A DNA stretch of 64,000 nt from Candidatus Nanosyncoccaceae bacterium (GCA_050950465.1 JBMNHQ010000002.1:33670-97669); one strand, 5' to 3'; counted from the stretch's first letter, positions 19,401-55,192 are shown. Program-made: numbers and translations. The notes: a model not told the origin generated them from the letters alone.

Positions 19401-22400
19401 CTGGCGAGACTACCACCAAAGCCGATTCTTACACCTACGAAAACCCCACCACACCAGAGATAACTAGCATCTCACCCAGCGAAGGTCTGATTTACGGTGG
19501 CGAAGAAGTCACTATCACTGGCATTAATTTAGATAATATGAAGTGGAAACAGGTGGCAGCTGGAGGCTCTCATGCTTGTGCTATTGGACTAGATAATAAT
19601 GTTTATTGCTGGGGACTAAACAGCTTTGGTCAACTTGGCAATGGTAACAACAACAACTCTAATATTCCCGTTGCTATTTCCCAAGGTGATATACCTACTA
19701 GTGTGACGATTCAGCAACTCTCGGCTGACAGCTATCATACCTGCGCTCTTGGTTCAGACAATAAAGCTTATTGCTGGGGGCGGAACAATTATGGCCAACT
19801 CGGTGATGGCAATAGTGGTTCTAGCGCTGATAAATCTACTCCAGTCGCCGTTCTTCAGGGCGCCATCCCAACTGGCGTCACCATTCAGCAAATCTCGGTT
19901 GGTGGCTCTCACACCTGCGTCCTTGGTTCAGACAATAAAGCTTATTGCTGGGGAAATAATTACCATGGCCAGCTTGGTAATAACAAGAGTGGTGGTAGTC
20001 AATTCTCGTACGATAATAATATTGATTCTTCAACTCCAGTTGCTGTTATCCAAGATAATGTCCCTACCGATATAGTTTTCCAACAAATTACAGTCGGTGG
20101 CGGTCATACCTGCGCTCTTGGTTCAGATAATAAAGCTTATTGCTGGGGGAGTAATAGTAATGGTCAGCTTGGTGATGGCACTACTAATAACAAAACCACT
20201 CCAGTCGCCGTTCTTCAGGGCGCCATCCCAACTGGCGTCACTATCCAGCAACTCTCGGCTGGCACCTCTCATACCTGCGCTCTTGGTTCAGACAATAAAG
20301 CTTATTGCTGGGGGCGGAACAATTATGGCCAACTCGGTGATGGCAATAGTGGTTCTAGCGCTGATAAATCTACTCCAGTCGCCGTTCTTCAGGGCGCCAT
20401 CCCAACTGGCGTCACCATTCAGCAAATCTTGGTTGGCACCTCTCACACCTGCGCTCTTGGTTCAGACAATAAAGCTTATTGCTGGGGATTTAATTGGGGT
20501 GGTCAGCTTGGTGATGGCACTACTAATAACAAAACCACTCCAGTCGCCGTTCTTCAGGGCGCCATCCCAACTGGCGTCACCATTCAGCAAATCTTGGTTG
20601 GCACCTCTCACACCTGCGCTCTTGGTTCAGACAATAAAGCTTATTGCTGGGGGAATAATAATAACGGTCAGCTTGGTGATAGCACTATAACCAACCGTAT
20701 TACTCCAGTACCTGTTAAAACCGCCAATTATTCGGTTGCTTTCGGTGATATTTCAACTCAACAAATTGTCTCATTAGTTAATACTCAAGTGAAAGTTGTT
20801 GCGCCAGCTCATCAATTTGGTGTCAAAGATATTAGTTTGACTCATACTATAATGAATCATACGAGTAGCACATTATCCAGTGCGTATAACTATATTAATC
20901 CGTCAGCACCTGTAATTGCGTCAGTTAATCCTAAAACTGGAGTGTCTGCTGGTAACATTAATGCGACAGTTCAAGTTGAAAATTCGTCGAACCTTAAAAT
21001 AGCTGATGATCTTGTGCAAATAACCACTGGCACCTCTCATACCTGCGCTCTTGGTTCAGACAATAAAGCTTATTGCTGGGGGCGGAACAATTATGGCCAA
21101 CTCGGTGATGGCAATAGTGGTTCTAGCGCTGATAAATCTACTCCAGTCGCCGTTCTTCAGGGCGCCATCCCAACTGGCGTCACCATTCAGCAAATCTCGG
21201 TTGGTGGCTCTCACACCTGCGTCCTTGGTTCAGACAATAAAGCTTATTGCTGGGGATTTAATTGGGGTGGTCAGCTTGGTGATGGCACTACTAATAACAA
21301 AACCACTCCAGTCGCCGTTCTTCAGGGCGCCATCCCAACTGGCGTCACCATTCAGCAAATCTCGGTTGGTGGCTCTCACACCTGCGCTCTTGGTTCAGAC
21401 AATAAAGCTTATTGCTGGGGATATAACAATCATGGTCAACTTGGTGATGGCGCTGGTAGTGCTGGTGATTATAAAACCACTCCAGTCGCCGTTCTTCAGG
21501 GCGCCATCCCAACTGGCGTCACTATCCAGCAACTCTCGGCTGGCACCTCTCATACCTGCGCTCTTGGTTCAGACAATAAAGTATATTGCTGGGGATACAA
21601 CTTTCTTGGTCAACTTGGTGATGGCACCAAGACTAATCGCACCACTCCTGTCGCCGTTTCCCAAGGTGATATACCTACTAGTGTAACGATTCAGCAACTC
21701 TCAGTTGGCAGCAACCATGCTTGTGTTCTTGACTCAAATAACCAGGTTTACTGTTGGGGACATGGTGGCTACGGTCAGCTCGGTGATGGCACTACGATCG
21801 ATAGCACTAGTCCAACTGCCGTTCTTTCTGGTGATATACCTACTAGCGTAACGATTCAGCAAGTTTTTGCTCTCGGAGCAGAAATATACAATGCTTATAC
21901 CTGCGCTCTTGGTTCAGACAATCGTGTCTATTGTTGGGGTTGGAATAGCTACGGTCAACTCGGTGATGGTACTGCTACTCAACGTAATGTCCCTACGGTC
22001 ATCCTTCCGGGTGTTATTCCTATGGATGTTATTTTTCAACAAATTGTTGGTGGCGGTTTTCACACCTGTGCCCTCGACTCAACTGGTAAAGCCTATTGTT
22101 GGGGACACAACGAATATGGTCAACTCGGCACCAACCAAGTAGGCGACCCAGACGATCTCACAGACATCTCAGCCAGTCGTTACACCCCCGCCTATGTCAT
22201 GATGAAGTCCGATCCACTGGAAGTAAGCTTTGGTACCACTGCTGAACACACCGCCGGCACAGCCGGACTAGCTACAGCCGTCTCATCATTCACCGTACCC
22301 GATGGCCAATACTACATCCCAGGCACCACTACACTAACTCTTAACACTCCAGCCCACTCTGTTGGTCCCGTAGCCGTAGTAGTTAAGAACGCTGATGGTC

Positions 22401-22540
22401 AATCTAGCTCTAACACCATCGCCGCTGATGACTCTAATAAGTACACCTACACCAGTGTCCCCGATGCCCCAACTAACCTAACCGCCAATGCTACACCAGT
22501 CACTAACCAAGGCATCAACTACAACATCAATCTAAGCTGA
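16499..22540 (+). CDS. Giant surface protein, copy 1: membrane anchor + beta-rich N domain + three IPT/TIG domains each split by a 7-bladed RCC1 propeller; reading frame stopped by TGA inside the FN3 domain
   Basis: TTG start after GGGGAAGGG. Basic N-terminus plus a hydrophobic helix (IILTSLILITFLTPML). There are 21 RCC1 signatures (YCWGxNxxGQLGDG) arranged 7+7+7, and IPT strands (ITSVTPSIGQTTGGDTITIRGSGF ... VKFDNTYAPYVERISPYKLRVRNPAH..YTY). TGA at 22538-22540. Confidence 0.9.
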   Translation: MKLVTRKLTKFQPKLKSSFRLGFKFGFKIHTKHKTSQILRSGIILTSLILITFLTPMLKKTFQPQTVSAETVTKTWQLNQNSGYNYDYNNYEIEQTATGAQLKQLPSSITLTADEDNLLESWGLSAGTGVVSIIDDPSSGGTGKVYSATGRNTLYSKFYIPINPDLTYTLNGRFKSVGVGGESRIYFGLYPSTKLYNQYSAHSRREYLAFGDTATISNYDDLTITVQPSADLSTWNQGGVDVSHRRLVGFYFDGQTNKLPDFIIRPQGMVLSDVDPAQGAYSTASGTTINLNVPIPPEVQTKIIAGTTKIKNHADGAAYLYAAAYNSLVPTSSYANFSGAVTGTNTNLIIAHNLFPYETNWAKIGLILNYNQDENFTTNFDDISLTITGSQPMYSWQSPAIGPPYSQYVSGQLISMSHTLGSGSSDSVKYQISLDDGKSWLYYNTTTNAWESDLSQHIANTENLYSTPLIRDHGANKANTIDEINANLNKLPATDGIKFKWRAFLESNGTQQVELQSVTLTANNLDPTITSVTPSIGQTTGGDTITIRGSGFSNDEFEYFVGTCGMTKSGKLYCWGDNSRGKLGDGTFVSRSDKRPIAQGEVPITTIFTQIVNSWYHMCALGDDNEIYCWGDNQYGQLGDNTYDNRNIPTKVNKGAIPAGAKIASISTGFHHTCVLTQDDKMYCWGLNDTGQLGDGTTDNSPLPVEVNRGAIPTSVRIRSLQTGWMSSCVLAGDNNVYCWGDNRYGQLGDGTTGSKASPVLLSQGQRDPSFNISQLSTGAHHACIKDSDNKSYCWGLNTYGQLGDGTLFNKTSPTAVTQGDMPNQDIKQVVAGYRNTYVIGSDDKLYVWGHNERGSVGDGTFTNRSAPTLTLLPYSLGTVVSMDQFAFRSVAVLSNNQVYAWGVASGFLGDIVSGDQPLPVRASRSSNQVKFDNTYAPYVERISPYKLRVRNPAHDEGIVSVTATNSTGETTTKADSYTYENPTTPEITSISPSEGLIYGGEEVTITGINLDNMKWKQVAAGGSHACAIGLDNNVYCWGLNSFGQLGNGNNNNSNIPVAISQGDIPTSVTIQQLSADSYHTCALGSDNKAYCWGRNNYGQLGDGNSGSSADKSTPVAVLQGAIPTGVTIQQISVGGSHTCVLGSDNKAYCWGNNYHGQLGNNKSGGSQFSYDNNIDSSTPVAVIQDNVPTDIVFQQITVGGGHTCALGSDNKAYCWGSNSNGQLGDGTTNNKTTPVAVLQGAIPTGVTIQQLSAGTSHTCALGSDNKAYCWGRNNYGQLGDGNSGSSADKSTPVAVLQGAIPTGVTIQQILVGTSHTCALGSDNKAYCWGFNWGGQLGDGTTNNKTTPVAVLQGAIPTGVTIQQILVGTSHTCALGSDNKAYCWGNNNNGQLGDSTITNRITPVPVKTANYSVAFGDISTQQIVSLVNTQVKVVAPAHQFGVKDISLTHTIMNHTSSTLSSAYNYINPSAPVIASVNPKTGVSAGNINATVQVENSSNLKIADDLVQITTGTSHTCALGSDNKAYCWGRNNYGQLGDGNSGSSADKSTPVAVLQGAIPTGVTIQQISVGGSHTCVLGSDNKAYCWGFNWGGQLGDGTTNNKTTPVAVLQGAIPTGVTIQQISVGGSHTCALGSDNKAYCWGYNNHGQLGDGAGSAGDYKTTPVAVLQGAIPTGVTIQQLSAGTSHTCALGSDNKVYCWGYNFLGQLGDGTKTNRTTPVAVSQGDIPTSVTIQQLSVGSNHACVLDSNNQVYCWGHGGYGQLGDGTTIDSTSPTAVLSGDIPTSVTIQQVFALGAEIYNAYTCALGSDNRVYCWGWNSYGQLGDGTATQRNVPTVILPGVIPMDVIFQQIVGGGFHTCALDSTGKAYCWGHNEYGQLGTNQVGDPDDLTDISASRYTPAYVMMKSDPLEVSFGTTAEHTAGTAGLATAVSSFTVPDGQYYIPGTTTLTLNTPAHSVGPVAVVVKNADGQSSSNTIAADDSNKYTYTSVPDAPTNLTANATPVTNQGINYNINLS
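18175..19265 (+). repeat. RCC1 propeller 1 of copy 1 (7 blades, approximate bounds)
   Basis: Seven (Y/V/A)(C/V/A)WG..N..G.LGDG motifs: KLYCWGDNSRG, EIYCWGDNQYG, KMYCWGLNDTG, NVYCWGDNRYG, KSYCWGLNTYG, KLYVWGHNERG, QVYAWGVASG. Confidence 0.85.
19541..20720 (+). repeat. RCC1 propeller 2 of copy 1 (7 blades, approximate bounds)
   Basis: Seven CWG blades. Several are nearly identical at the DNA level to each other and to blades of propeller 3. Confidence 0.85.
21011..22140 (+). repeat. RCC1 propeller 3 of copy 1 (7 blades, approximate bounds)
   Basis: Seven CWG blades, from KAYCWGRNNYG through KAYCWGHNEYG. Confidence 0.85.
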
Positions 22541-23263
22541 ACAGCACCAGTCAGTGATGGCTATAGTCCTATCACTGACTATCTCATAGAGTACTGCATT
22601 AGTAATAGCTCTGGTGTCTGTAACCCATCTCCAGAAGGGGACTGGACTATCTACAATGATGGCACCAGCACTAATACCAGTACTACCATAAGCTCTCTCC
22701 CAGCTAGCCCATCAGCCTACTATACCTTCAGAGTCTCAGCTATTAACAACATCGGCACTAGCCAACCTAGTAACACTCCTACAGTCCAAACTAGCTTCAT
22801 CACACTGTCTTCATCAGTTGACACTGTCACTATTAACATCAACCCATCAGCCAGTGGTAGTACTAATACCTTCTCATCCACTACCCATAATCTCATAGCC
22901 AACTCTAACACCAACTACAACATCACACTATCTATGCCTAGTACCACCCAAACTCTATCCAATGGCACTCACACCATTAACCCCACATCAGCTAATGCCT
23001 CCAATCCTCAATTAGACCTCCCAGCCAACACTTGGGGTTACCGACTCAATAACACTACCTTTGGCACCACTACTACCATAGAGACTAATGTCCCTAATAG
23101 CCAATACACTTGGGCTCAAGTTCAACAGAGCACCACACCAGACCTCATCTACACTGGCACAGGCAATCACACCTTCCCAGTCTACTATGGCTTAAAGGCT
23201 AGCCACACCCAAGCCTCTGGTACCTATACTGGCACTGTTACCTATACAGCTACGACGCAGTAG
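22541..23263 (+). pseudogene. In-frame 3' continuation of copy 1 (rest of FN3 domain + Thr-rich C-terminal domain) cut off by the single TGA
   Basis: There are 723 nt (241 codons) in the same frame as 16499, with no further stop until TAG at 23261-23263. The segment is near-identical to 54015-54737 of copy 2 at a constant offset of 31474. Confidence 0.85.
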
Positions 23264-23379
23264 GGGGCTAGGATAAACAATTTGCGAGTCGTGTTAGATA
23301 ATGGTACGGCCATTGACTTTTTATAGTTTTTGTGATACATTAGAAGTATCTAACAAACAAAAACAAAAAGGATCAATAA

Positions 23380-47341: not shown

Positions 47342-47370
47342 TTGTGCTTATTTACTTTTCGTGTTAGATT
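47342..47370 (+). promoter_or_regulatory. Candidate promoter of giant surface-protein gene copy 2 (identical to 16410-16438)
   Basis: Same TTGTGC-17-TGtTAGATT, in a block identical to 16401-16545. Confidence 0.5.
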
Positions 47371-47430
47371 AAATGTAGCTACTAAGTGTAGTGTGTAAAC
47401 AATAAATATTCAGGGGAAGGGTTATCTCTG

Positions 47431-50400
47431 TTGAAATTAGTTACTCGCAAACTAACTAAGTTTCAACCTAAGCTAAATAAAGCAACACAGTTTAGGTTAG
47501 GGTTTAAGTTTGGGTTTAAGTCTAAGGCTAACTCAGTTCAAAGCTCTAGCCCTAACTCTAATCTAAGCCTAAAGACTAATTATGGTTTTAAGATAAAAAC
47601 CAAACACCAAACCAACCAAACCCTAAGACTAGGACTAACACTAGCTTCACTCATACTCATAACCTTCCTATCACCTATACTAAAGAAGACCTTCACTCCA
47701 CACACAACTAACGCTACTACCATAACTAAAACATGGCAGTTAAACCAGAATATTCCCACTCAATACGATTACAACACACATGAAATTGAACAAACCGCTA
47801 CTGGCGCTAGACTAAAACAACTACCAAGCTCCATCACACTTACGGCTGATGAAGAGAGTTTCTTTGATGTGTGGGAGCCATATTATGGCGGTGGGCAAAC
47901 TTCAATAGTTGACGACCCTTCCAGTGGTGGTAATGGTAAAGTGTATAATGTTGCTAATCATGTTCAGCTTTTCTCTAATTTCTTTGTACCAATTAATCCA
48001 GATTTTACTTATACTATAAGTGGAAGATTTAAGTCAGTTGGTGCAGGTGGTGAATCTATGGTGTATTTTGGTCTTGCACCATATGATAAAAATTATTATC
48101 AACCAAACTTTATACAGCGGAGTGATTACCGTGCTGTTGGCGATACGGCCACTATTGCTAATTATGATGATTCAACTATCACAGTTCAAGCTGGCGTAGA
48201 TTTATCGACTTGGAATCAAGGTGGAGTGGATTTAGCTGTTGATCGTTTAATTGGCTTCTATTTTGATGGTCAGACTGACAAATTACCAGATTTTGTCATA
48301 TCGCCTCAAGAGTCTGGTTATTATTATAGTACAGATCCGACTAGAGGGGCTTATTCCACTGCTAGTGGTACAACCATTAATCTTAATACACCGATTCCGC
48401 CTGAAGTGCAGGCTAAAATAAACTTAGATGTAACGAAGATTAAGAATCATATGGGCGACTCTACATATCTTTATACAGCAGCTAAGTCAAAACTTATTCC
48501 CGCTAATATATACACTACCTATTCGGGTAGTATAACTGGCATAAATACTAGCTTGGGTCAAAATATACATAACTCATTCCCATACGAAACCAATTGGGCA
48601 AAAATAGTTATCTTACTCAACTATGGTCAAGATCATAATTATGCTACCAACTTCGACGACATCTCTCTCACTATCACTGGTTCTCAACCAATGTATTCAT
48701 GGCAGTCACCAGCTATTGAGCCACCATATAGCCAATACGTTAGTGGTCAACTAACATCTATGAGTCACACGCTTGGCTCTGGCTCATCAGACAGTGTTAA
48801 ATACCAAATCTCATTAGATAATGGCAAAAGCTGGCTTTATTACAACACGACCACTAACGCTTGGGAAAGTGACTTATCTCAGCGAGTATCAAATAGTAGT
48901 ATTTATCGCATTACTACCATCCGTGACCACGGCGCCCTCAAAGCCAATACTATCGAAGAAATCAACGCCAACTTAAACAAGTTACCAGCCACCGATGGCA
49001 TCCAATTCAAATGGCGCGCCTTCTTAGAGTCCAACGGCACTCAGCAGGTTGAACTCCAATCAGTCACTCTCACAGCCAATAACCTTGATCCAACTATCAC
49101 ATCCGTCACACCTAGCATTGGTCAAACCACTGGTGGTGATACTATCACTATACGTGGCAGTGGCTTCTCTAACGATGAGTTTGAGTACTTTGTTGGTACT
49201 TGTGGTATGACTAAAAGCGGCAAGCTTTACTGCTGGGGTGATAATACTTGTGGCCAACTAGGTGATGGCACTTTTACTAGCCGTTTAGATAAACGACCAA
49301 TCGCTCAAGGTGAAGTCCCAACCACTACAACCTTCACTCAGATTGTTAAAGGCTGGCTACACATGTGTGCTCTTGGCGACGATAACGAAATCTACTGCTG
49401 GGGTGACAATCAATATGGCCAATTGGGCGATGGTGCTTTCGACAACCGCAACATTCCAACTAAAGTCAACAAAGGCGCCATACCAGCCAGTGCTAAAATA
49501 ACCTCTATTTCTACAGCTTATTACCACACCTGTGCTCTAACCCAAGACGATAAGATGTATTGTTGGGGGCAAAATGACCTCGGTCAACTCGGTGACGGTA
49601 CCACTGACAATCGCTCACTACCAGTTGAAGTTAACCGTGGTAATATCCCAACATCAGTTAGAATCAGAAGTCTGCAGACTGGCTGGAAGCATAGCTGTGT
49701 CCTCGCTGGCGATAATAACGTCTATTGTTGGGGTCGAAACACTCTTGGTCAGCTCGGTGATGGTACTACTACTCATAGATCATCTCCAGTCCTTGTAATT
49801 CAAGGTCAGCGTGACCCTAGCTATAATATTACTCAATTATCCGTCGGTGCTCACTATGCCTGTATCAAGGATACTGATAGTAAAGCCTATTGTTGGGGTC
49901 GAAATGTTGATGGTGAATTAGGTAGCGGAATTACATCAAACTACGAAACTAGCCCAGTCGCTATTGCCCAAGGAGTTATGCCTGATCAAAATATTAAAAC
50001 CATCATGGCAGGCTATTGGAGCACTTATGCGATTAGCTCTGATGACAAACTTTATGCTTGGGGGCATAACGGAGACGGTTCCTTAGGTGATGGCACCACT
50101 ATAAATCGCAATACACCAATATTAGTCTCGTTACCGTACAGTTCTGGTGTAAATATCTCTCATACTAATTTCTGGTGGCGCTCTGCTCGAGTTACTGTGT
50201 CTAATGGACATCATTATATTTGGGGATTAAACAATCATGGCCAATTAGGTGATGGCACACAAACTAGCTACCACACACCAACCCACATCCGCTACTCCAC
50301 TAACCAAGTCAAGTTTGGTGACAACTACGCACCACAAGTTGAGCGTATTTCACCATATGAACTGCGTGTCCGAAACCCAGCGCATGAAGCTGGAGTAGTA

Positions 50401-50553
50401 GGAGTAACAGCCACCAACTCAACTGGCGAGACTACCACCAAAGCCGATTCTTACACCTACGAAAACCCCACCACACCAGAAATAACTAGCATCTCACCTA
50501 ACGAAGGTCTGATCTACGGTGGCGAGAAGTCACTATATCTGGCACTAATTTAG
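47431..50553 (+). CDS. Giant surface protein, copy 2, 5' part (anchor, N domain, IPT1 with nested 7-blade RCC1 propeller, start of IPT2), ended by frameshift
   Basis: TTG start in a context identical to copy 1 and collinear with copy 1 throughout. After ...ITSISPNEGLIYGGE the frame runs out (KSLYLALI, TAG 50551-53) because of a 1-nt deletion relative to copy 1. Confidence 0.9.
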   Translation: MKLVTRKLTKFQPKLNKATQFRLGFKFGFKSKANSVQSSSPNSNLSLKTNYGFKIKTKHQTNQTLRLGLTLASLILITFLSPILKKTFTPHTTNATTITKTWQLNQNIPTQYDYNTHEIEQTATGARLKQLPSSITLTADEESFFDVWEPYYGGGQTSIVDDPSSGGNGKVYNVANHVQLFSNFFVPINPDFTYTISGRFKSVGAGGESMVYFGLAPYDKNYYQPNFIQRSDYRAVGDTATIANYDDSTITVQAGVDLSTWNQGGVDLAVDRLIGFYFDGQTDKLPDFVISPQESGYYYSTDPTRGAYSTASGTTINLNTPIPPEVQAKINLDVTKIKNHMGDSTYLYTAAKSKLIPANIYTTYSGSITGINTSLGQNIHNSFPYETNWAKIVILLNYGQDHNYATNFDDISLTITGSQPMYSWQSPAIEPPYSQYVSGQLTSMSHTLGSGSSDSVKYQISLDNGKSWLYYNTTTNAWESDLSQRVSNSSIYRITTIRDHGALKANTIEEINANLNKLPATDGIQFKWRAFLESNGTQQVELQSVTLTANNLDPTITSVTPSIGQTTGGDTITIRGSGFSNDEFEYFVGTCGMTKSGKLYCWGDNTCGQLGDGTFTSRLDKRPIAQGEVPTTTTFTQIVKGWLHMCALGDDNEIYCWGDNQYGQLGDGAFDNRNIPTKVNKGAIPASAKITSISTAYYHTCALTQDDKMYCWGQNDLGQLGDGTTDNRSLPVEVNRGNIPTSVRIRSLQTGWKHSCVLAGDNNVYCWGRNTLGQLGDGTTTHRSSPVLVIQGQRDPSYNITQLSVGAHYACIKDTDSKAYCWGRNVDGELGSGITSNYETSPVAIAQGVMPDQNIKTIMAGYWSTYAISSDDKLYAWGHNGDGSLGDGTTINRNTPILVSLPYSSGVNISHTNFWWRSARVTVSNGHHYIWGLNNHGQLGDGTQTSYHTPTHIRYSTNQVKFGDNYAPQVERISPYELRVRNPAHEAGVVGVTATNSTGETTTKADSYTYENPTTPEITSISPNEGLIYGGEKSLYLALI
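49189..50300 (+). repeat. RCC1 propeller 1 of copy 2 (7 blades, approximate bounds)
   Basis: Seven CWG/AWG/IWG blade motifs, from KLYCWGDNTCG to HHYIWGLNNHG. Confidence 0.85.
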
Positions 50554-50573
50554 ATAATTTTAAGTTTAAACAA

Positions 50574-53500
50574 ATGGCTAAATCAGGTGGACCAACTAAT
50601 CACAACTGTGTTATTGGTCTAGATGGTTGGGTTTATTGTTGGGGGCGTAATGAATCTGGTCAACTTGGTACTGGCGATACCAATAGCCGCTCTACTCCAG
50701 TTGCTATCCAGCGTGGTGAAATACCAGCCGATGCTACTATTGAGTCTCTCTACATTGGTGGACGCCATGGTTGCGTTATTACTGACGCAGGCGATGCTTA
50801 CTGTTGGGGTGAAAACAACTCTGGTCAACTTGGTAACGGTCTATCAGGTGGGAGGGGTGACTCATTTGACCTTGGTATTGATCAGTCTACTCCAGTAGCT
50901 GTCCAACGAGGTATTATACCAACTAACGTTAAATTTTCCCAAATGGCCTTAGGCGGTGATGCTAGCGTCAATGGTTCTCCACCTGAGCACACCTGCGCCC
51001 TCGACTCAGCAGGTCAAGCCTACTGTTGGGGATATAACTACTATGGCCAACTCGGCACTGGTAATACTACTAGCTCCAATATCCCAGTTGCCGTCCAGTC
51101 TAATGACCTTGGCCACGCTCTCTATGGTAAGACTATTACCCAAATCACGGCTGGCTACTCTCACACCTGCGCCCTCGACTCAGCTGGCCAAGCCTACTGT
51201 TGGGGAAATAATTACCATGGTCAACTTGGTACTGGTGTGAGTGGTGGTGTCTCATATTATTATGATGACGGTATTGACTTCAACGTCCCAGTCCCCATCA
51301 AAGCTAATGACCCAACTGACGCTCTCCATAACAAAACCATCACCCAAGTCATAGCTGGTCGGCAGCACACCTGCGCTCTCGACTCAGACGGTAAGGTCTA
51401 CTGCTGGGGGTATAATAACTATGGCCAACTCGGCACTGGTAACGCCACTGACTTCAACGTCCCAGTCCCCATCAAAGCTAATGACCCAACTGACGCTCTC
51501 CATAACAAAACCATCACCCAAGTCATAGCTGGTCGGCAGCACACCTGCGCTCTCGACTCTACTGGCAAAGCCTACTGTTGGGGATATAATCAATATGGTC
51601 AACTCGGCACTGGTAATAGCACTAGCTCCAATGTACCAGTTTCCGTCAAAGCTGACCAACCAACCGATGTTCTCTACGGTAAAATTATTACGCAAATCAC
51701 AGCTGGTGGCTATGACACCTGCGCTCTCGACTCAGCTGGCCAAGCCTACTGTTGGGGATATAACTACTATGGCCGGCTCGGCATTGGTAATAATACTAGC
51801 TCTAATGTCCCACTACTAGTCAAACCAGGCTATCTCATCTACTTTGGTGGTACACCAACTAGCTTGGGTCTCTATCCAACTGGTAATAACACTAAATTAA
51901 CCAGTATTGAACTTAAAGTCATATCTCCAGCTGTCAGTGGACCGGCTACTGTTAATATTACTCTTCACTCTACTACTACCAACACTACCTATAACACCCT
52001 CAACCAAGTCTACACTTTCATTAGTCCACCAACTCCAATTATCACCCAAGTCATTCCTAACGCTGGCTCAGCTAATGGCAATACTGCCATAAGAGCTACT
52101 AACTTATCTAACCTCAAGTTAGCCGATGATTTTACTCAAATTACAGCTGGTGGTAGTCACACCTGCGCTCTCGACTCAGATAATAAAGCTTATTGTTGGG
52201 GAGGTGGCTACTCTGGTCAACTCGGCACTGGTAATACTAACAACTCTAATGTCCCAGTCCTCGTCAAAGCTGATGACCCAACTGACGCTCTCTATGGTAA
52301 AACCATTGCGCAAATCACCGCTGGCAGCTCTCACACCTGCGCCCTCGATTCCACCGGCCAAGCCTACTGTTGGGGGCATAACCAGTATGGCCAACTCGGC
52401 ACTGGTGATACCACTAACTCCAACGTCCCAGTCGCCGTCCAGTCTAACGACCCAACTGACGCTCTCTATGGTAAAACTATTACTCAAATCACGGCTAGCC
52501 AGCACCACACTTGCGCTACTGACTCCACTGGTCAAGCTTACTGTTGGGGAAGAAACGGCTTTGGCCAACTCGGTAATGGCGATACTAACGACTCCAATGT
52601 CCCAGTTCTAGTTGAAGCTAATAATCCAACTGATGCTCTCTATGGTAAAACCATTGCGCAAATCACCGCTGGCACCTCTCACACCTGCGCTCTCGATTCC
52701 ACCGGCCAAGCCTACTGTTGGGGATATAACGGCTCTGGCCAACTCGGCACTGGTGATACCACTAACTCCAACGTCCCAGTCGCCGTCCAGTCTAACGACC
52801 CAACTGACGCTCTCTATGGTAAAACTATTACTCAAATCACGGCTAGCCAGCACCACACTTGCGCTACTGACTCCACTGGTCAAGCTTACTGTTGGGGAAG
52901 AAACGGCTTTGGCCAACTCGGTAATGGCGATACTAACGACTCCAATGTCCCAGTTCTAGTTGAAGCTAATAATCCAACTGATGCTCTCTATGGTAAAACT
53001 ATTACCCAAATCACGGCTGGCACCTCTCACACCTGCGCTCTCGATTCCACCGGCCAAGCCTACTGTTGGGGATATAACGGCTCTGGCCAACTCGGCACTG
53101 GTGATACCACTAACTCCAACGTCCCAGTCGCCGTCCAGTCTAACGACCCAACTGACGCTCTCTATGGTAAAACTATTACTCAAATCACGGCTAGCCAGCA
53201 CCACACTTGCGCTACTGACTCCACTGGTCAAGCTTACTGTTGGGGAAGAAACGGCTTTGGCCAACTCGGTAATGGCGATACTAACGACTCCAATGTCCCA
53301 GTTCTAGTTGAAGCTAATAATCCAACTGATGCTCTCTATGGTAAAACTATTACCCAAATCACGGCTGGCACCTCTCACACCTGCGCCCTCGATTCCACCG
53401 GCCAAGCCTACTGTTGGGGGCATAACCAGTATGGCCAACTCGGCACTGGTGATACCACTAACTCCAACGTCCCAGTCGCCGTCCAGTCTAACGACCTAAC

Positions 53501-54737
53501 TGACGCTCTCTATGGTAAAACCATTGCGCAAATCACCGCTGGCAGCTCTCACACCTGCGCCCTCGACTCCGCTGGCCAAGCCTACTGTTGGGGATATAAC
53601 TACTATGGCCGGCTCGGCACCAAACAATCGGGCATCGACTTATCTATGCAGCGTTACACCCCCGCCTATGTCATGATGAAGTCCGATCCACTGGAAGTCA
53701 GCTTTGGCACTACAGCTGAACACACCGCCGGCACAGCTGGACTAGCCACAGCCGTCTCGTCCTTTGATGTTCCAACTGGTCAGTATTACATCCCAGGCAC
53801 CACTACACTAACCCTTAACACTCCAGCTCACTCTGCTGGTCCCGTAGCCGTAGTAGTAAAGAACGCTGATGGTCAATCCAGCTCTAACACCATTGCCGCT
53901 GACAACTCTAATAAGTACACCTACACCAGTGTCCCGGATAGCCCAACCAACCTAACCGCCAATGCTACACCAGTCACTAACCAAGGCATCAACTACAACA
54001 TCAATCTAAGCTGGACAGCACCAGTCAGTGATGGCTATAGTCCAATCACTGACTATCTCATAGAGTACTGCATTAGTAATAGCTCTGGTGTCTGTAACCC
54101 ATCTCCAGAAGGGGACTGGACTATCTACAATGATGGCACCAGCACTAATACCAGTACTACCATAAGCTCTCTCCCAGCTAGCCCATCAGCCTACTATACC
54201 TTCAGAGTCTCAGCTATTAACAACATCGGCACTAGCCAACCTAGTAACACTCCTACAGTCCAAACTAGCTTCATCACACTGTCTTCATCAGTTGACACTG
54301 TCACTATTAACATCAACCCATCAGCCAGTGGTAGTACTAATACCTTCTCATCCACTACCCATAATCTCATAGCCAACTCTAACACCAACTACAACATCAC
54401 ACTATCTATGCCTAGTACCACCCAAACTCTATCCAATGGCACTCACACCATTAACCCCACATCAGCTAATGCCTCCAATCCTCAATTAGACCTCCCAGCC
54501 AACACTTGGGGTTACCGACTCAATAACACTACCTTTGGCACCACTACTACCATAGAGACTAATGTCCCTAATAGCCAATACACTTGGGCTCAAGTTCAAC
54601 AGAGCACCACACCAGACCTCATCTACACTGGCACAGGCAATCACACCTTCCCAGTCTACTATGGCTTAAAGGCTAGCCACACCCAAGCCTCTGGTACCTA
54701 TACTGGCACTGTTACCTATACAGCTACGACGCAGTAG
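50574..54737 (+). CDS. Giant surface protein, copy 2, 3' part (rest of IPT2 with 7-blade propeller, IPT3 with 9-blade propeller, FN3, C-terminal domain)
   Basis: The frame is open from 50502. Translated from 50526 it reads EVTISGTNLDNFKFKQMAKSGG..., collinear with copy 1 (EVTITGINLDNMKWKQVAAGG...). The ATG at 50574 is internal and has no SD. Contains 16 CWG blades and an FN3 domain (about 53931-54262) with the LSWTAP tryptophan intact. Confidence 0.9.
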   Translation: MAKSGGPTNHNCVIGLDGWVYCWGRNESGQLGTGDTNSRSTPVAIQRGEIPADATIESLYIGGRHGCVITDAGDAYCWGENNSGQLGNGLSGGRGDSFDLGIDQSTPVAVQRGIIPTNVKFSQMALGGDASVNGSPPEHTCALDSAGQAYCWGYNYYGQLGTGNTTSSNIPVAVQSNDLGHALYGKTITQITAGYSHTCALDSAGQAYCWGNNYHGQLGTGVSGGVSYYYDDGIDFNVPVPIKANDPTDALHNKTITQVIAGRQHTCALDSDGKVYCWGYNNYGQLGTGNATDFNVPVPIKANDPTDALHNKTITQVIAGRQHTCALDSTGKAYCWGYNQYGQLGTGNSTSSNVPVSVKADQPTDVLYGKIITQITAGGYDTCALDSAGQAYCWGYNYYGRLGIGNNTSSNVPLLVKPGYLIYFGGTPTSLGLYPTGNNTKLTSIELKVISPAVSGPATVNITLHSTTTNTTYNTLNQVYTFISPPTPIITQVIPNAGSANGNTAIRATNLSNLKLADDFTQITAGGSHTCALDSDNKAYCWGGGYSGQLGTGNTNNSNVPVLVKADDPTDALYGKTIAQITAGSSHTCALDSTGQAYCWGHNQYGQLGTGDTTNSNVPVAVQSNDPTDALYGKTITQITASQHHTCATDSTGQAYCWGRNGFGQLGNGDTNDSNVPVLVEANNPTDALYGKTIAQITAGTSHTCALDSTGQAYCWGYNGSGQLGTGDTTNSNVPVAVQSNDPTDALYGKTITQITASQHHTCATDSTGQAYCWGRNGFGQLGNGDTNDSNVPVLVEANNPTDALYGKTITQITAGTSHTCALDSTGQAYCWGYNGSGQLGTGDTTNSNVPVAVQSNDPTDALYGKTITQITASQHHTCATDSTGQAYCWGRNGFGQLGNGDTNDSNVPVLVEANNPTDALYGKTITQITAGTSHTCALDSTGQAYCWGHNQYGQLGTGDTTNSNVPVAVQSNDLTDALYGKTIAQITAGSSHTCALDSAGQAYCWGYNYYGRLGTKQSGIDLSMQRYTPAYVMMKSDPLEVSFGTTAEHTAGTAGLATAVSSFDVPTGQYYIPGTTTLTLNTPAHSAGPVAVVVKNADGQSSSNTIAADNSNKYTYTSVPDSPTNLTANATPVTNQGINYNINLSWTAPVSDGYSPITDYLIEYCISNSSGVCNPSPEGDWTIYNDGTSTNTSTTISSLPASPSAYYTFRVSAINNIGTSQPSNTPTVQTSFITLSSSVDTVTININPSASGSTNTFSSTTHNLIANSNTNYNITLSMPSTTQTLSNGTHTINPTSANASNPQLDLPANTWGYRLNNTTFGTTTTIETNVPNSQYTWAQVQQSTTPDLIYTGTGNHTFPVYYGLKASHTQASGTYTGTVTYTATTQ
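50580..51830 (+). repeat. RCC1 propeller 2 of copy 2 (7 blades of ~58 aa, approximate bounds)
   Basis: Seven YCWG.N..G.LG.G motifs. The blades carry an extra DPTDAL(Y/H)(G/N)KTI segment not present in copy 1. Confidence 0.85.
52248..53639 (+). repeat. Tandem array of four 348-bp units (two RCC1 blades each) inside propeller 3 of copy 2
   Basis: The AATGTCCCAGT unit starts recur at 52248, 52596, 52944 and 53292, an exact 348-bp period. The two central units differ at only a few bases, and the flanking units are more diverged. Confidence 0.9.
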
Positions 54738-54805
54738 GGGGCTGGTCAGTCATGACTAAAAGTAGTAAAATAGGAGTGTTTCAGACAAATACCTAAAGGA
54801 GCAAA

Positions 54806-55192
54806 ATGGCGAAAGATTTAGAAATTAACGCAATTAAATACGAGCTTGATGAGCAAATTAAAAAATATGCTGATAAGAAGTTAAAAAAACTTTACGGTTA
54901 TTTGCCACGTCATGCTGGTAAAAGCGCTAAAATCAAAGTTAATCTAGAGAAATTATCTAAGAAGCGTGATGATCATTTTCAGGCGACCGTTGTTGTGACC
55001 GTCCCAGGGAAAACTCTGACTGCCAGTGGCAATGCTACTAATATGGCAGCTGCAATTGATATCGTACAATCTAAGATGCTCTCGCAAATTCGACGTTACA
55101 AAACCGAGACCATTCCTCAGCTTGGCAATCGAACTGAGTTGTTTGTTGGTCTAAAACGTCGATTATTTCGTGACCGCTCCAACGAAGGGTGA
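54806..55192 (+). CDS. hpf: Ribosome hibernation promoting factor / RaiA family (short form)
   Basis: The S30AE-family pattern: I....el.e.ikkY...Kl.kl......a.v.v.l.k........a.v.v.vpg..l.a. AAAGGAG SD. Ends in TGA. Confidence 0.8.
   Translation: MAKDLEINAIKYELDEQIKKYADKKLKKLYGYLPRHAGKSAKIKVNLEKLSKKRDDHFQATVVVTVPGKTLTASGNATNMAAAIDIVQSKMLSQIRRYKTETIPQLGNRTELFVGLKRRLFRDRSNEG

Follow-up and report, generated by a model that had tools for sequence, protein, structure and literature searches.

Highly repetitive propellers, defined by a median blade identity of >60% and by blades that are more alike within the propeller than to those of other propellers, arise continually (Pereira and Lupas 2022; PMC9218822). 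RCC1/BLIP-II propellers make up 10% of the set described there, and 8% of the set are local amplifications inside differentiated propellers. The same study describes "no counting system" for blades and expects off-number forms to converge on a preferred number or to decay, and many of its highly repetitive propellers are disrupted by frameshifts or stops. In Bombyx mandarina DPPY, one of its examples, duplication of a single blade raised the number from 8 to 9, and in Mastigocoleus, another, chitinase paralogues have either 6 or 9 blades; one case alone came from a two-blade fragment, and that was a global amplification. Here we describe a 348-bp tandem array in an RCC1-type propeller of Candidatus Nanosyncoccaceae bacterium, a member of the Saccharibacteria. 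The array lies in propeller 3 of a giant surface-protein gene (copy 2) on a stretch of 64,000 nucleotides (nt) (GCA_050950465.1, JBMNHQ010000002.1:33670-97669), hereafter called the window, and it gives this propeller nine repeats instead of seven. We consider it fairly probable (about 0.6) that the array is a real, recent 348-bp duplication in a nonfunctional gene copy and that the nine repeats are a short-lived by-product of repeat recombination.

The genome comprises 870,924 bp in two contigs (41% G+C, 97.6% complete). A whole-genome motif scan identified six RCC1-repeat genes with ~17 propellers, and at least four of the genes are closely related three-propeller giant surface-protein paralogues (copies 1 to 4). 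Copies 1 and 2 are located in the window, whereas copy 3 is an intact 1,879-amino-acid (aa) paralogue with three seven-blade propellers on the other contig (C1:47334-41698, minus strand). Copy 4 (C1:189670-184010; P0004) is also intact, with 1,887 aa. Copy 2 is divided between two open frames (Table 1). The proximal frame (P0002) encodes an N-terminal membrane/signal segment, a large N-terminal domain, an IPT/TIG domain, and propeller 1 and ends at a frameshift; the distal frame (P0001) encodes propeller 2, an inter-propeller spacer, propeller 3, an Fn3 domain, and a C-terminal tail. Membership in the RCC1-like family was taken to mean repeats of ~50 to 60 aa with the CWG...GQLG signature, above the Pfam thresholds, and the distal product matched RCC1 (PF00415; E = 3e-180, 16 stretches), RCC1_2 (PF13540; E = 4e-152), and WD40_RLD (PF25390; E = 2e-237), all above threshold.

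Counts of YCWG motifs in the translations agree with the first-pass annotation of the window, according to which propeller 3 of copy 2 has nine blades and each of the remaining five propellers in the two genes has seven. In the unit phase of that annotation, which we kept for comparison, the two-blade units start at 52248, 52596, 52944, and 53292; a nested 174-bp period (8.1 copies, 76%; Tandem Repeats Finder) runs through the array. Units 2 and 3 differ by only 4 nt (offsets 56, 60, 62, and 71), which change a single amino acid (KTIAQIT versus KTITQIT), so that the near identity claimed for the central units is borne out. Units 1 and 2 differ by 16 nt. Unit 4 is the same as unit 3 up to offset 94, shows seven differences at offsets 95 to 139, agrees with it again until about offset 204, and from offset 205 onwards departs from it, running into the last blade. 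The earlier description of the array as exact therefore applies to its period and its central part and not to all four units. The longest run of identity at a lag of 348 is 371 consecutive bases (52668-53038 = 53016-53386); that is, the segment 52668-53015 is base-identical to 53016-53363 and is followed by 23 more identical bases. An identity of this length is far beyond chance. Among the eight full repeats of this propeller, the median amino acid identity is 78%, and the array units are 89% to 100% identical to one another and at most 83% identical to any other locus in the genome. In all features tested, the array belongs to the class of highly repetitive, locally amplified propellers.

The order in which the units arose can be read from their differences. 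Unit 3 corresponds to offsets 0 to 94 of unit 4 followed by offsets 72 to 347 of unit 2, with the deduced junction in a 23-bp window at offsets 72 to 94. Deleting one 348-bp copy yields a propeller of 414 aa with seven YCWG motifs, close to the seven-blade propeller 3 of copy 1 (412 aa). The ancestor implied by these bases had one blade and three two-blade units, seven blades in all. One misaligned exchange, either unequal crossover or replication slippage, of unit 3 with unit 2 of such a three-unit ancestor would give four units, and the present array, judged from its DNA, matches the product of one exchange of this kind without any substitution since. The perfect duplication, together with the return to 414 aa and seven motifs when one copy is removed, upholds the proposal that a two-blade unit was gained very recently. 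Exact identity runs of 264 and 371 nt were found at lag 348, whereas at lag 174 no run inside the array exceeds 29 nt; homology-dependent misalignment should therefore move in two-blade steps only. The two-blade step would reflect the fact that long exact homology (264 to 371 nt) is offered solely by the 348-bp register. This identity pattern is also consistent with the unequal crossing-over in steps of two blades that had been suggested. RecA is encoded in the genome.

The number seven is the rule for this family, and the rule extends beyond the window. All of the ~16 other propellers in the genome have seven repeats by the whole-genome motif scan; where just six YCWG motifs match strictly, as in the first propeller of copies 1 and 2, a degenerate seventh blade is present. 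Every complete propeller in four relatives (G001, G002, G005, and G010) has seven RCC1 matches, including nine of nine propellers in G005. Run lengths among 242 homologues, determined with a blade profile built here, peak at 7, 14, 21, 28, and 35, and all of the solved RCC1-like structures that we found are seven-bladed. With nine, propeller 3 of copy 2 departs from the number of its lineage. Four unrelated bacterial proteins (P0126, 484 aa; P0158, 496 aa; P0146, 495 aa; P0135, 506 aa) appear to have a single run of nine or ten CWG repeats at regular spacing, with diverged blades; each may be a natural RCC1 propeller that exceeds seven blades or else a piece of a longer gene.

Nearly identical blades as such are not exceptional here. 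Blades with at least 95% DNA identity occur in propeller 3 of copy 3 (three consecutive blades), propeller 3 of copy 4, and propeller 2 of copy 1, all of which are seven-bladed, indicating that blade homogenization and amplification are routine in the family and that the net count is normally seven. Propeller 2 of copy 4 carries an older 348-bp period (3.1 copies, 81% matches), again with 1 + 3 x 2 = 7 blades, and propeller 2 of copy 2 keeps seven blades despite an older single-blade array (Table 1). The blade arrays of the family would be continually homogenized and amplified, with selection on the folded protein restoring seven. The same habit of homogenization could instead mean that the four-unit array is old, that nine repeats are long-standing, and that the identity of units 2 and 3 reflects concerted evolution by gene conversion; the clustering of the four differences between these units within 16 bp, like a short conversion patch, would fit. 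We regard this as improbable. A nine-repeat propeller is present in no paralogue or relative, the closest relatives are ~73% identical and have no four-unit orthologue, and the perfect identity of 371 nt is what a single crossover produces, with no extra assumption needed.

The state of the gene bears on what the array could do. Copy 2 lacks one G at ~50526, ~1.7 kb upstream of the array, and its frame then meets a stop codon at 50551-50553. Over 14.7 kb that include the deletion site, a contig from a different sample (L008) matches the window at 100.000% identity, and the same 1,040-aa product was called from it; since L008 carries the same deletion, the lesion in copy 2 is real. Disruption of the gene, common in highly repetitive propellers, is thus present in copy 2 as well. 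Programmed frameshifting at 50526 was considered and rejected, there being no slippery sequence or homopolymer tract at that site. Within the first 200 codons of the distal frame, translation could start at just two, and neither a signal peptide in its product nor an obvious ribosome-binding site at the possible starts was seen. The sequence of the locus suggests that this strain probably does not make the nine-repeat domain, and selection for seven blades would therefore have been removed. On the preferred reading, copy 2 escaped the seven-blade filter because the upstream 1-nt deletion had already uncoupled propellers 2 and 3 from the signal sequence, and the nine repeats would represent a neutral, passing departure from the usual number in a copy that is decaying or silent rather than a designed nine-bladed head.

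The first-pass annotation had proposed that changes in the array would vary the size or geometry of the distal head. For a working head this finds no support, given the frameshift ~1.7 kb upstream, which recurs in an independent assembly. In a broader form of the proposal, the nine-repeat propeller would be made by reinitiation, by frameshift suppression, or after transfer to an intact paralogue, and the gain and loss of two blades would serve as a contingency mechanism for the geometry or valency of the adhesin head. The reading frame is kept through the duplication, the 4.1-kb distal frame is otherwise intact, and homology arms for cassette exchange exist (the 1.77-kb tract shared with copy 3 and the 94% identical tail of copy 1). 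Apparent runs of nine or ten CWG repeats in the few homologues mentioned above and the nine-bladed propellers of other families, such as eIF2A (PMC4125824), also speak for it. We nevertheless find it quite improbable, considering that the upstream frameshift is fixed in independent samples, that no start codon with a ribosome-binding site is evident, that the predicted structure is disordered at the junction and loses ring closure (see below), and that the ~16 other propellers of the genome, those of the four relatives, and the solved RCC1-like structures found are all seven-bladed.

To the structure of the nine repeats, AlphaFold2 models provide a guide. The nine-repeat segment and a seven-blade control (propeller 3 of copy 1) were modeled with the same 60-sequence alignment. 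The mean predicted local distance difference test (pLDDT) value was 86 for the nine-repeat segment and 93 for the control, and the predicted template modeling (pTM) scores were 0.82 and 0.91, respectively. Residues 270 to 289 of the nine-repeat model had pLDDT values of <50 and residues 300 to 330 values of 59 to 72, and no such internal patch was seen in the control. This low-confidence patch straddles the duplication junction at residue 306. In addition, the fifth blade lacks one strand, and the C-terminal closing strand, which is formed in the control, is disordered. In Foldseek searches, the top matches of the nine-repeat model were UVR8, HERC2, RPGR, and RCC1 (probability, 1.00; template modeling score on the target [TMt], 0.81 to 0.85). 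Against UVR8, the nine-repeat model gave a TMt of 0.81 to 0.85 and a root mean square deviation of 3.4 to 4.4 Å over 453 to 461 alignment columns, versus 0.88 to 0.92, 2.2 to 2.5 Å, and about 399 columns for the control. The nine-repeat alignment is thus about one blade longer than that of the control, the number of well-superposed residues is nearly equal, and the model superposes on seven-blade rings with a gap of one blade length.

The control is a single closed seven-blade ring, whereas the nine-repeat model, with its disordered patch and lost closing strand, is not. AlphaFold2 gave no clean nine-blade ring, contrary to one possibility raised in the first-pass annotation, and confidence collapsed at the junction. 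We read the models instead as a ring formed by some seven blades, or possibly eight, from which the surplus is probably excluded, and the measures used for ring size (pLDDT, DSSP, and Foldseek scores) do not separate seven blades with two excluded from eight with one excluded. The other earlier suggestion, that the extra blades form part of a second, incomplete ring, was provisionally set aside, as nothing in the predicted model supports one. In a translated domain, the surplus blades would most probably either stay outside the ring or distort it. That the four-unit allele is both real and expressed, for example via gene conversion with copy 3, and folds as an RCC1-type ring of more than seven blades appears very improbable to us. 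Were it the case, unequal crossing-over in two-blade steps would be a means by which Saccharibacteria vary the size of the adhesin head, and a ring of nine would be the first natural nine-bladed propeller of the RCC1 family.

The number of units depends on how the locus was assembled, and the other public assemblies are informative in this respect. Over 9 to 14.7 kb, short-read contigs of at least 10 further samples agree with the window at 100.000% identity, and the base accuracy of the window is therefore high. Via the flanking genes for SecA (downstream) and SerRS (upstream), 26 contigs of the same strain were found, and those shown are 100% identical to the flanks. The contigs of other assemblies all end at window positions 47362 to 50670 or start at 54013 to 54989, which are the gene edges. 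The same clone thus recurs across samples, and short-read assemblies are evidently unable to cross the giant paralogues. Those assemblies break at this gene, whereas the present two-contig genome runs through near-identical paralogous tracts of 1.2 to 1.8 kb, and because it resolves tracts longer than the array, long reads able to span 1.4 kb were presumably used.

Two records from the same organism illustrate what happens to this family during assembly or in the population. Another assembly contains a 1,383-aa version of the 1,887-aa copy 4 product (P0008) in which propellers 2 and 3 are fused via an odd junction (HTCALGAELAYCWG); the fused propeller again has seven blades, and the protein represents either an assembly collapse or a real deletion variant. 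In a contig from a Joint Genome Institute (JGI) sample (3300049642; L007:1-3400), copy-4-like propellers (97% identical to C1:187176-185499), the last of which has five blades, are joined to the tail of copy 2, followed by SecA at 100% identity. Either short-read assembly produced a chimera or a subpopulation carries another cassette at the locus. This contig was the only one to extend into the gene, and as a mosaic of copy-4-like sequence and the copy 2 tail it was unusable as a comparator for the array.

These records also give some weight to the possibility that the true locus has three units and seven blades and that one period was added by the assembler or polisher. A mis-overlap of one period would be expected to leave a perfect duplication too, same-strain assemblies mishandle the family (breaks at gene edges, the collapsed copy 4 protein, and the mosaic with a five-blade propeller), and there is no independent record of the array in the collections searched. 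An artefact of this type is nevertheless unlikely in our view. The errors in other assemblies are collapses or breaks and never expansions, ~25 kb of flank is 100.000% identical to independent contigs, and the resolution of longer near-identical paralogous tracts implies reads longer than the 1.4-kb array. Moreover, a specific 4-nt patch sets unit 3, a clean recombinant, apart from unit 2; for a mis-join, the 264-bp exact tract would have been the likelier place, and units 2 and 3 would then be identical.

Several points weigh against a real and recent duplication in a nonfunctional copy. No other public assembly spanning the array was found, so the four-unit count comes from one assembly, whose long-read origin is itself deduced from what it resolves. 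The array blades were found nowhere else in the collections searched by pattern scans and protein searches. A 50-mer and the degenerate pattern ASQHHTCATDS for an array blade gave 0 matches in the JGI metagenome contigs, where the presence of the relevant samples is unconfirmed. Protein searches sized for full-length, medium, and short fragments returned best identities of 66% (a paralogue), 58%, and 62%, respectively; the sole other member of the cluster containing the distal product is a 109-aa tail fragment; and genomes of the same genus reach at most ~73% DNA identity and have no orthologous array. The distal 4.1-kb frame carries no further lesions; perhaps it remains in use, or perhaps it is just very young. 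Finally, recombination would have been more probable in the 264-bp exact tract, yet the deduced junction falls within the 23-bp window; for this reason, a duplication followed by a short conversion patch may be an equally simple history.

The features of copy 2 are listed in Table 1. From its sequence, the gene is a mosaic of copy 3-like and copy 1-like tracts. The propeller 2 sequences of copies 2 and 3 are 99.1% identical over 1,773 bp; this identity is lost a few codons past the first YCWG motif of propeller 3, within its opening blade, and it suggests recent gene conversion between loci on different contigs, in which copy 2 possibly acted as donor or recipient cassette.

Table 1. Repeats, frames, tracts, and lesion of copy 2, with tandem duplications elsewhere in the genome (window positions unless a contig is named)
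Feature	Position	Strand	Basis or detail
Copy 2 proximal open frame, P0002, 1040 aa	47431..50553	+	Translation, Pfam
Copy 3-like tract, 1773 bp, 99.1% identical to C1:45633-43862	50455..52225	+	Megablast vs whole genome
1-nt deletion splitting copy 2	50521..50531	+	GGCGAGAAGTC here vs ...GGEEVTITG... in intact copy 3
Copy 2 distal open frame, P0001, 1387 aa	50574..54737	+	Translation, Pfam
Older single-blade array in propeller 2 of copy 2, 174 bp x 3.0	51275..51790	+	Tandem Repeats Finder: 84% matches
Propeller 3 of copy 2, 530 aa, nine YCWG repeats	52101..53690	+	Translation; Pfam RCC1, RCC1_2, WD40_RLD; AlphaFold2 model m654d2f45732b
348-bp tandem array, 4.0 two-blade units	52186..53594	+	Tandem Repeats Finder: 94% matches, 0% indels, score 2380
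Perfectly periodic core	52668..53386	+	Longest lag-348 identity run
3' tail tract, 94% identical to copy 1 tail (window 22051-23269)	53540..54743	+	Megablast vs whole genome
Near-perfect tandem duplications outside the window	C2:246729-246985, C2:415705-415975, C2:446620-446837, C1:8959-9204, C1:35502-35929		

Copy 1 contains an in-frame TGA at 22538-22540, where copies 2, 3, and 4 encode Trp, and its frame then runs on to 23263; each of the two giant genes of the window has exactly one lesion, namely this TGA and the deletion in copy 2. Elsewhere in the genome, several tandem duplications are near perfect (98% to 100%), with periods of 98 to 186 bp. A 174-bp fragment at C2:465306-465478 (minus strand), adjoining an alanyl-tRNA-synthetase-like gene, is 98.9% identical to the end of copy 2 and the sequence downstream of it (window 54571-54744) and may be a relic or a shared terminator module.

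The array reveals no new mechanism or fold. It is an unusually clean snapshot of a change in blade number: the DNA still shows the seven-blade ancestor, the unit that was duplicated, and the window of the junction, and the off-number state sits in a copy already released from selection. As such, it supports the published model in which propellers amplify and then converge on a preferred number or decay, here for RCC1 blades in a reduced-genome episymbiont. There is also a practical warning: the blade and propeller counts of giant surface genes of the candidate phyla radiation (CPR) differ between public assemblies of the same strain.

In group B Streptococcus, the alpha C and Rib surface proteins have long in-frame repeats that are nearly identical in DNA and that expand and contract by recombination or slippage. 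Each of their repeats is a separate bead-like domain, and any number of them can fold, whereas the repeats of copy 2 are blades of a closed ring, where copy number is structurally constrained. With UVR8, RCC1, the RCC1-like domains (RLDs) of HERC2, and RPGR, propeller 3 shares its repeat family (by Pfam and by sequence match to solved structures) and fold. It differs from these seven-bladed domains in its nine repeats and in the poorer match of its model (TMt, 0.81 to 0.85). Nine-bladed propellers are known in other families, in eIF2A (PMC4125824), eIF3b, and designed proteins, and none built of RCC1 repeats was found among solved structures. With the WD40 "WRAP" and engineered propellers (Afanasieva et al. 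2019, PMC6805158; the Cake and Scone designs), ring size proved variable when the blades were identical, or some blades could stay outside the ring; those are WD40 blades and engineered constructs, in contrast to the natural RCC1 blades described here, which are known from sequence and model.

Within the Saccharibacteria, the minor pilin PilX2 of TM7x has a heptabladed propeller of RCC1 repeats (bioRxiv 10.1101/2024.11.25.624915). Like it, the giant proteins are surface or host-contact proteins, and a host-contact role for them fits with this precedent. The closest counterparts remain the propellers analyzed by Pereira and Lupas (PMC9218822). As in those cases, near-identical blades occur here in an otherwise differentiated propeller of the RCC1 type, the count is above the norm, and the gene is frameshifted; and as for the Bombyx propeller with one duplicated blade, AlphaFold is ambiguous on the surplus blade. 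Unlike in their local cases, the amplified unit consists of two blades and the host is a multi-paralogue adhesin family of Saccharibacteria, and unlike in the cases described there, both the three-unit ancestral state and the junction window are readable from the DNA.

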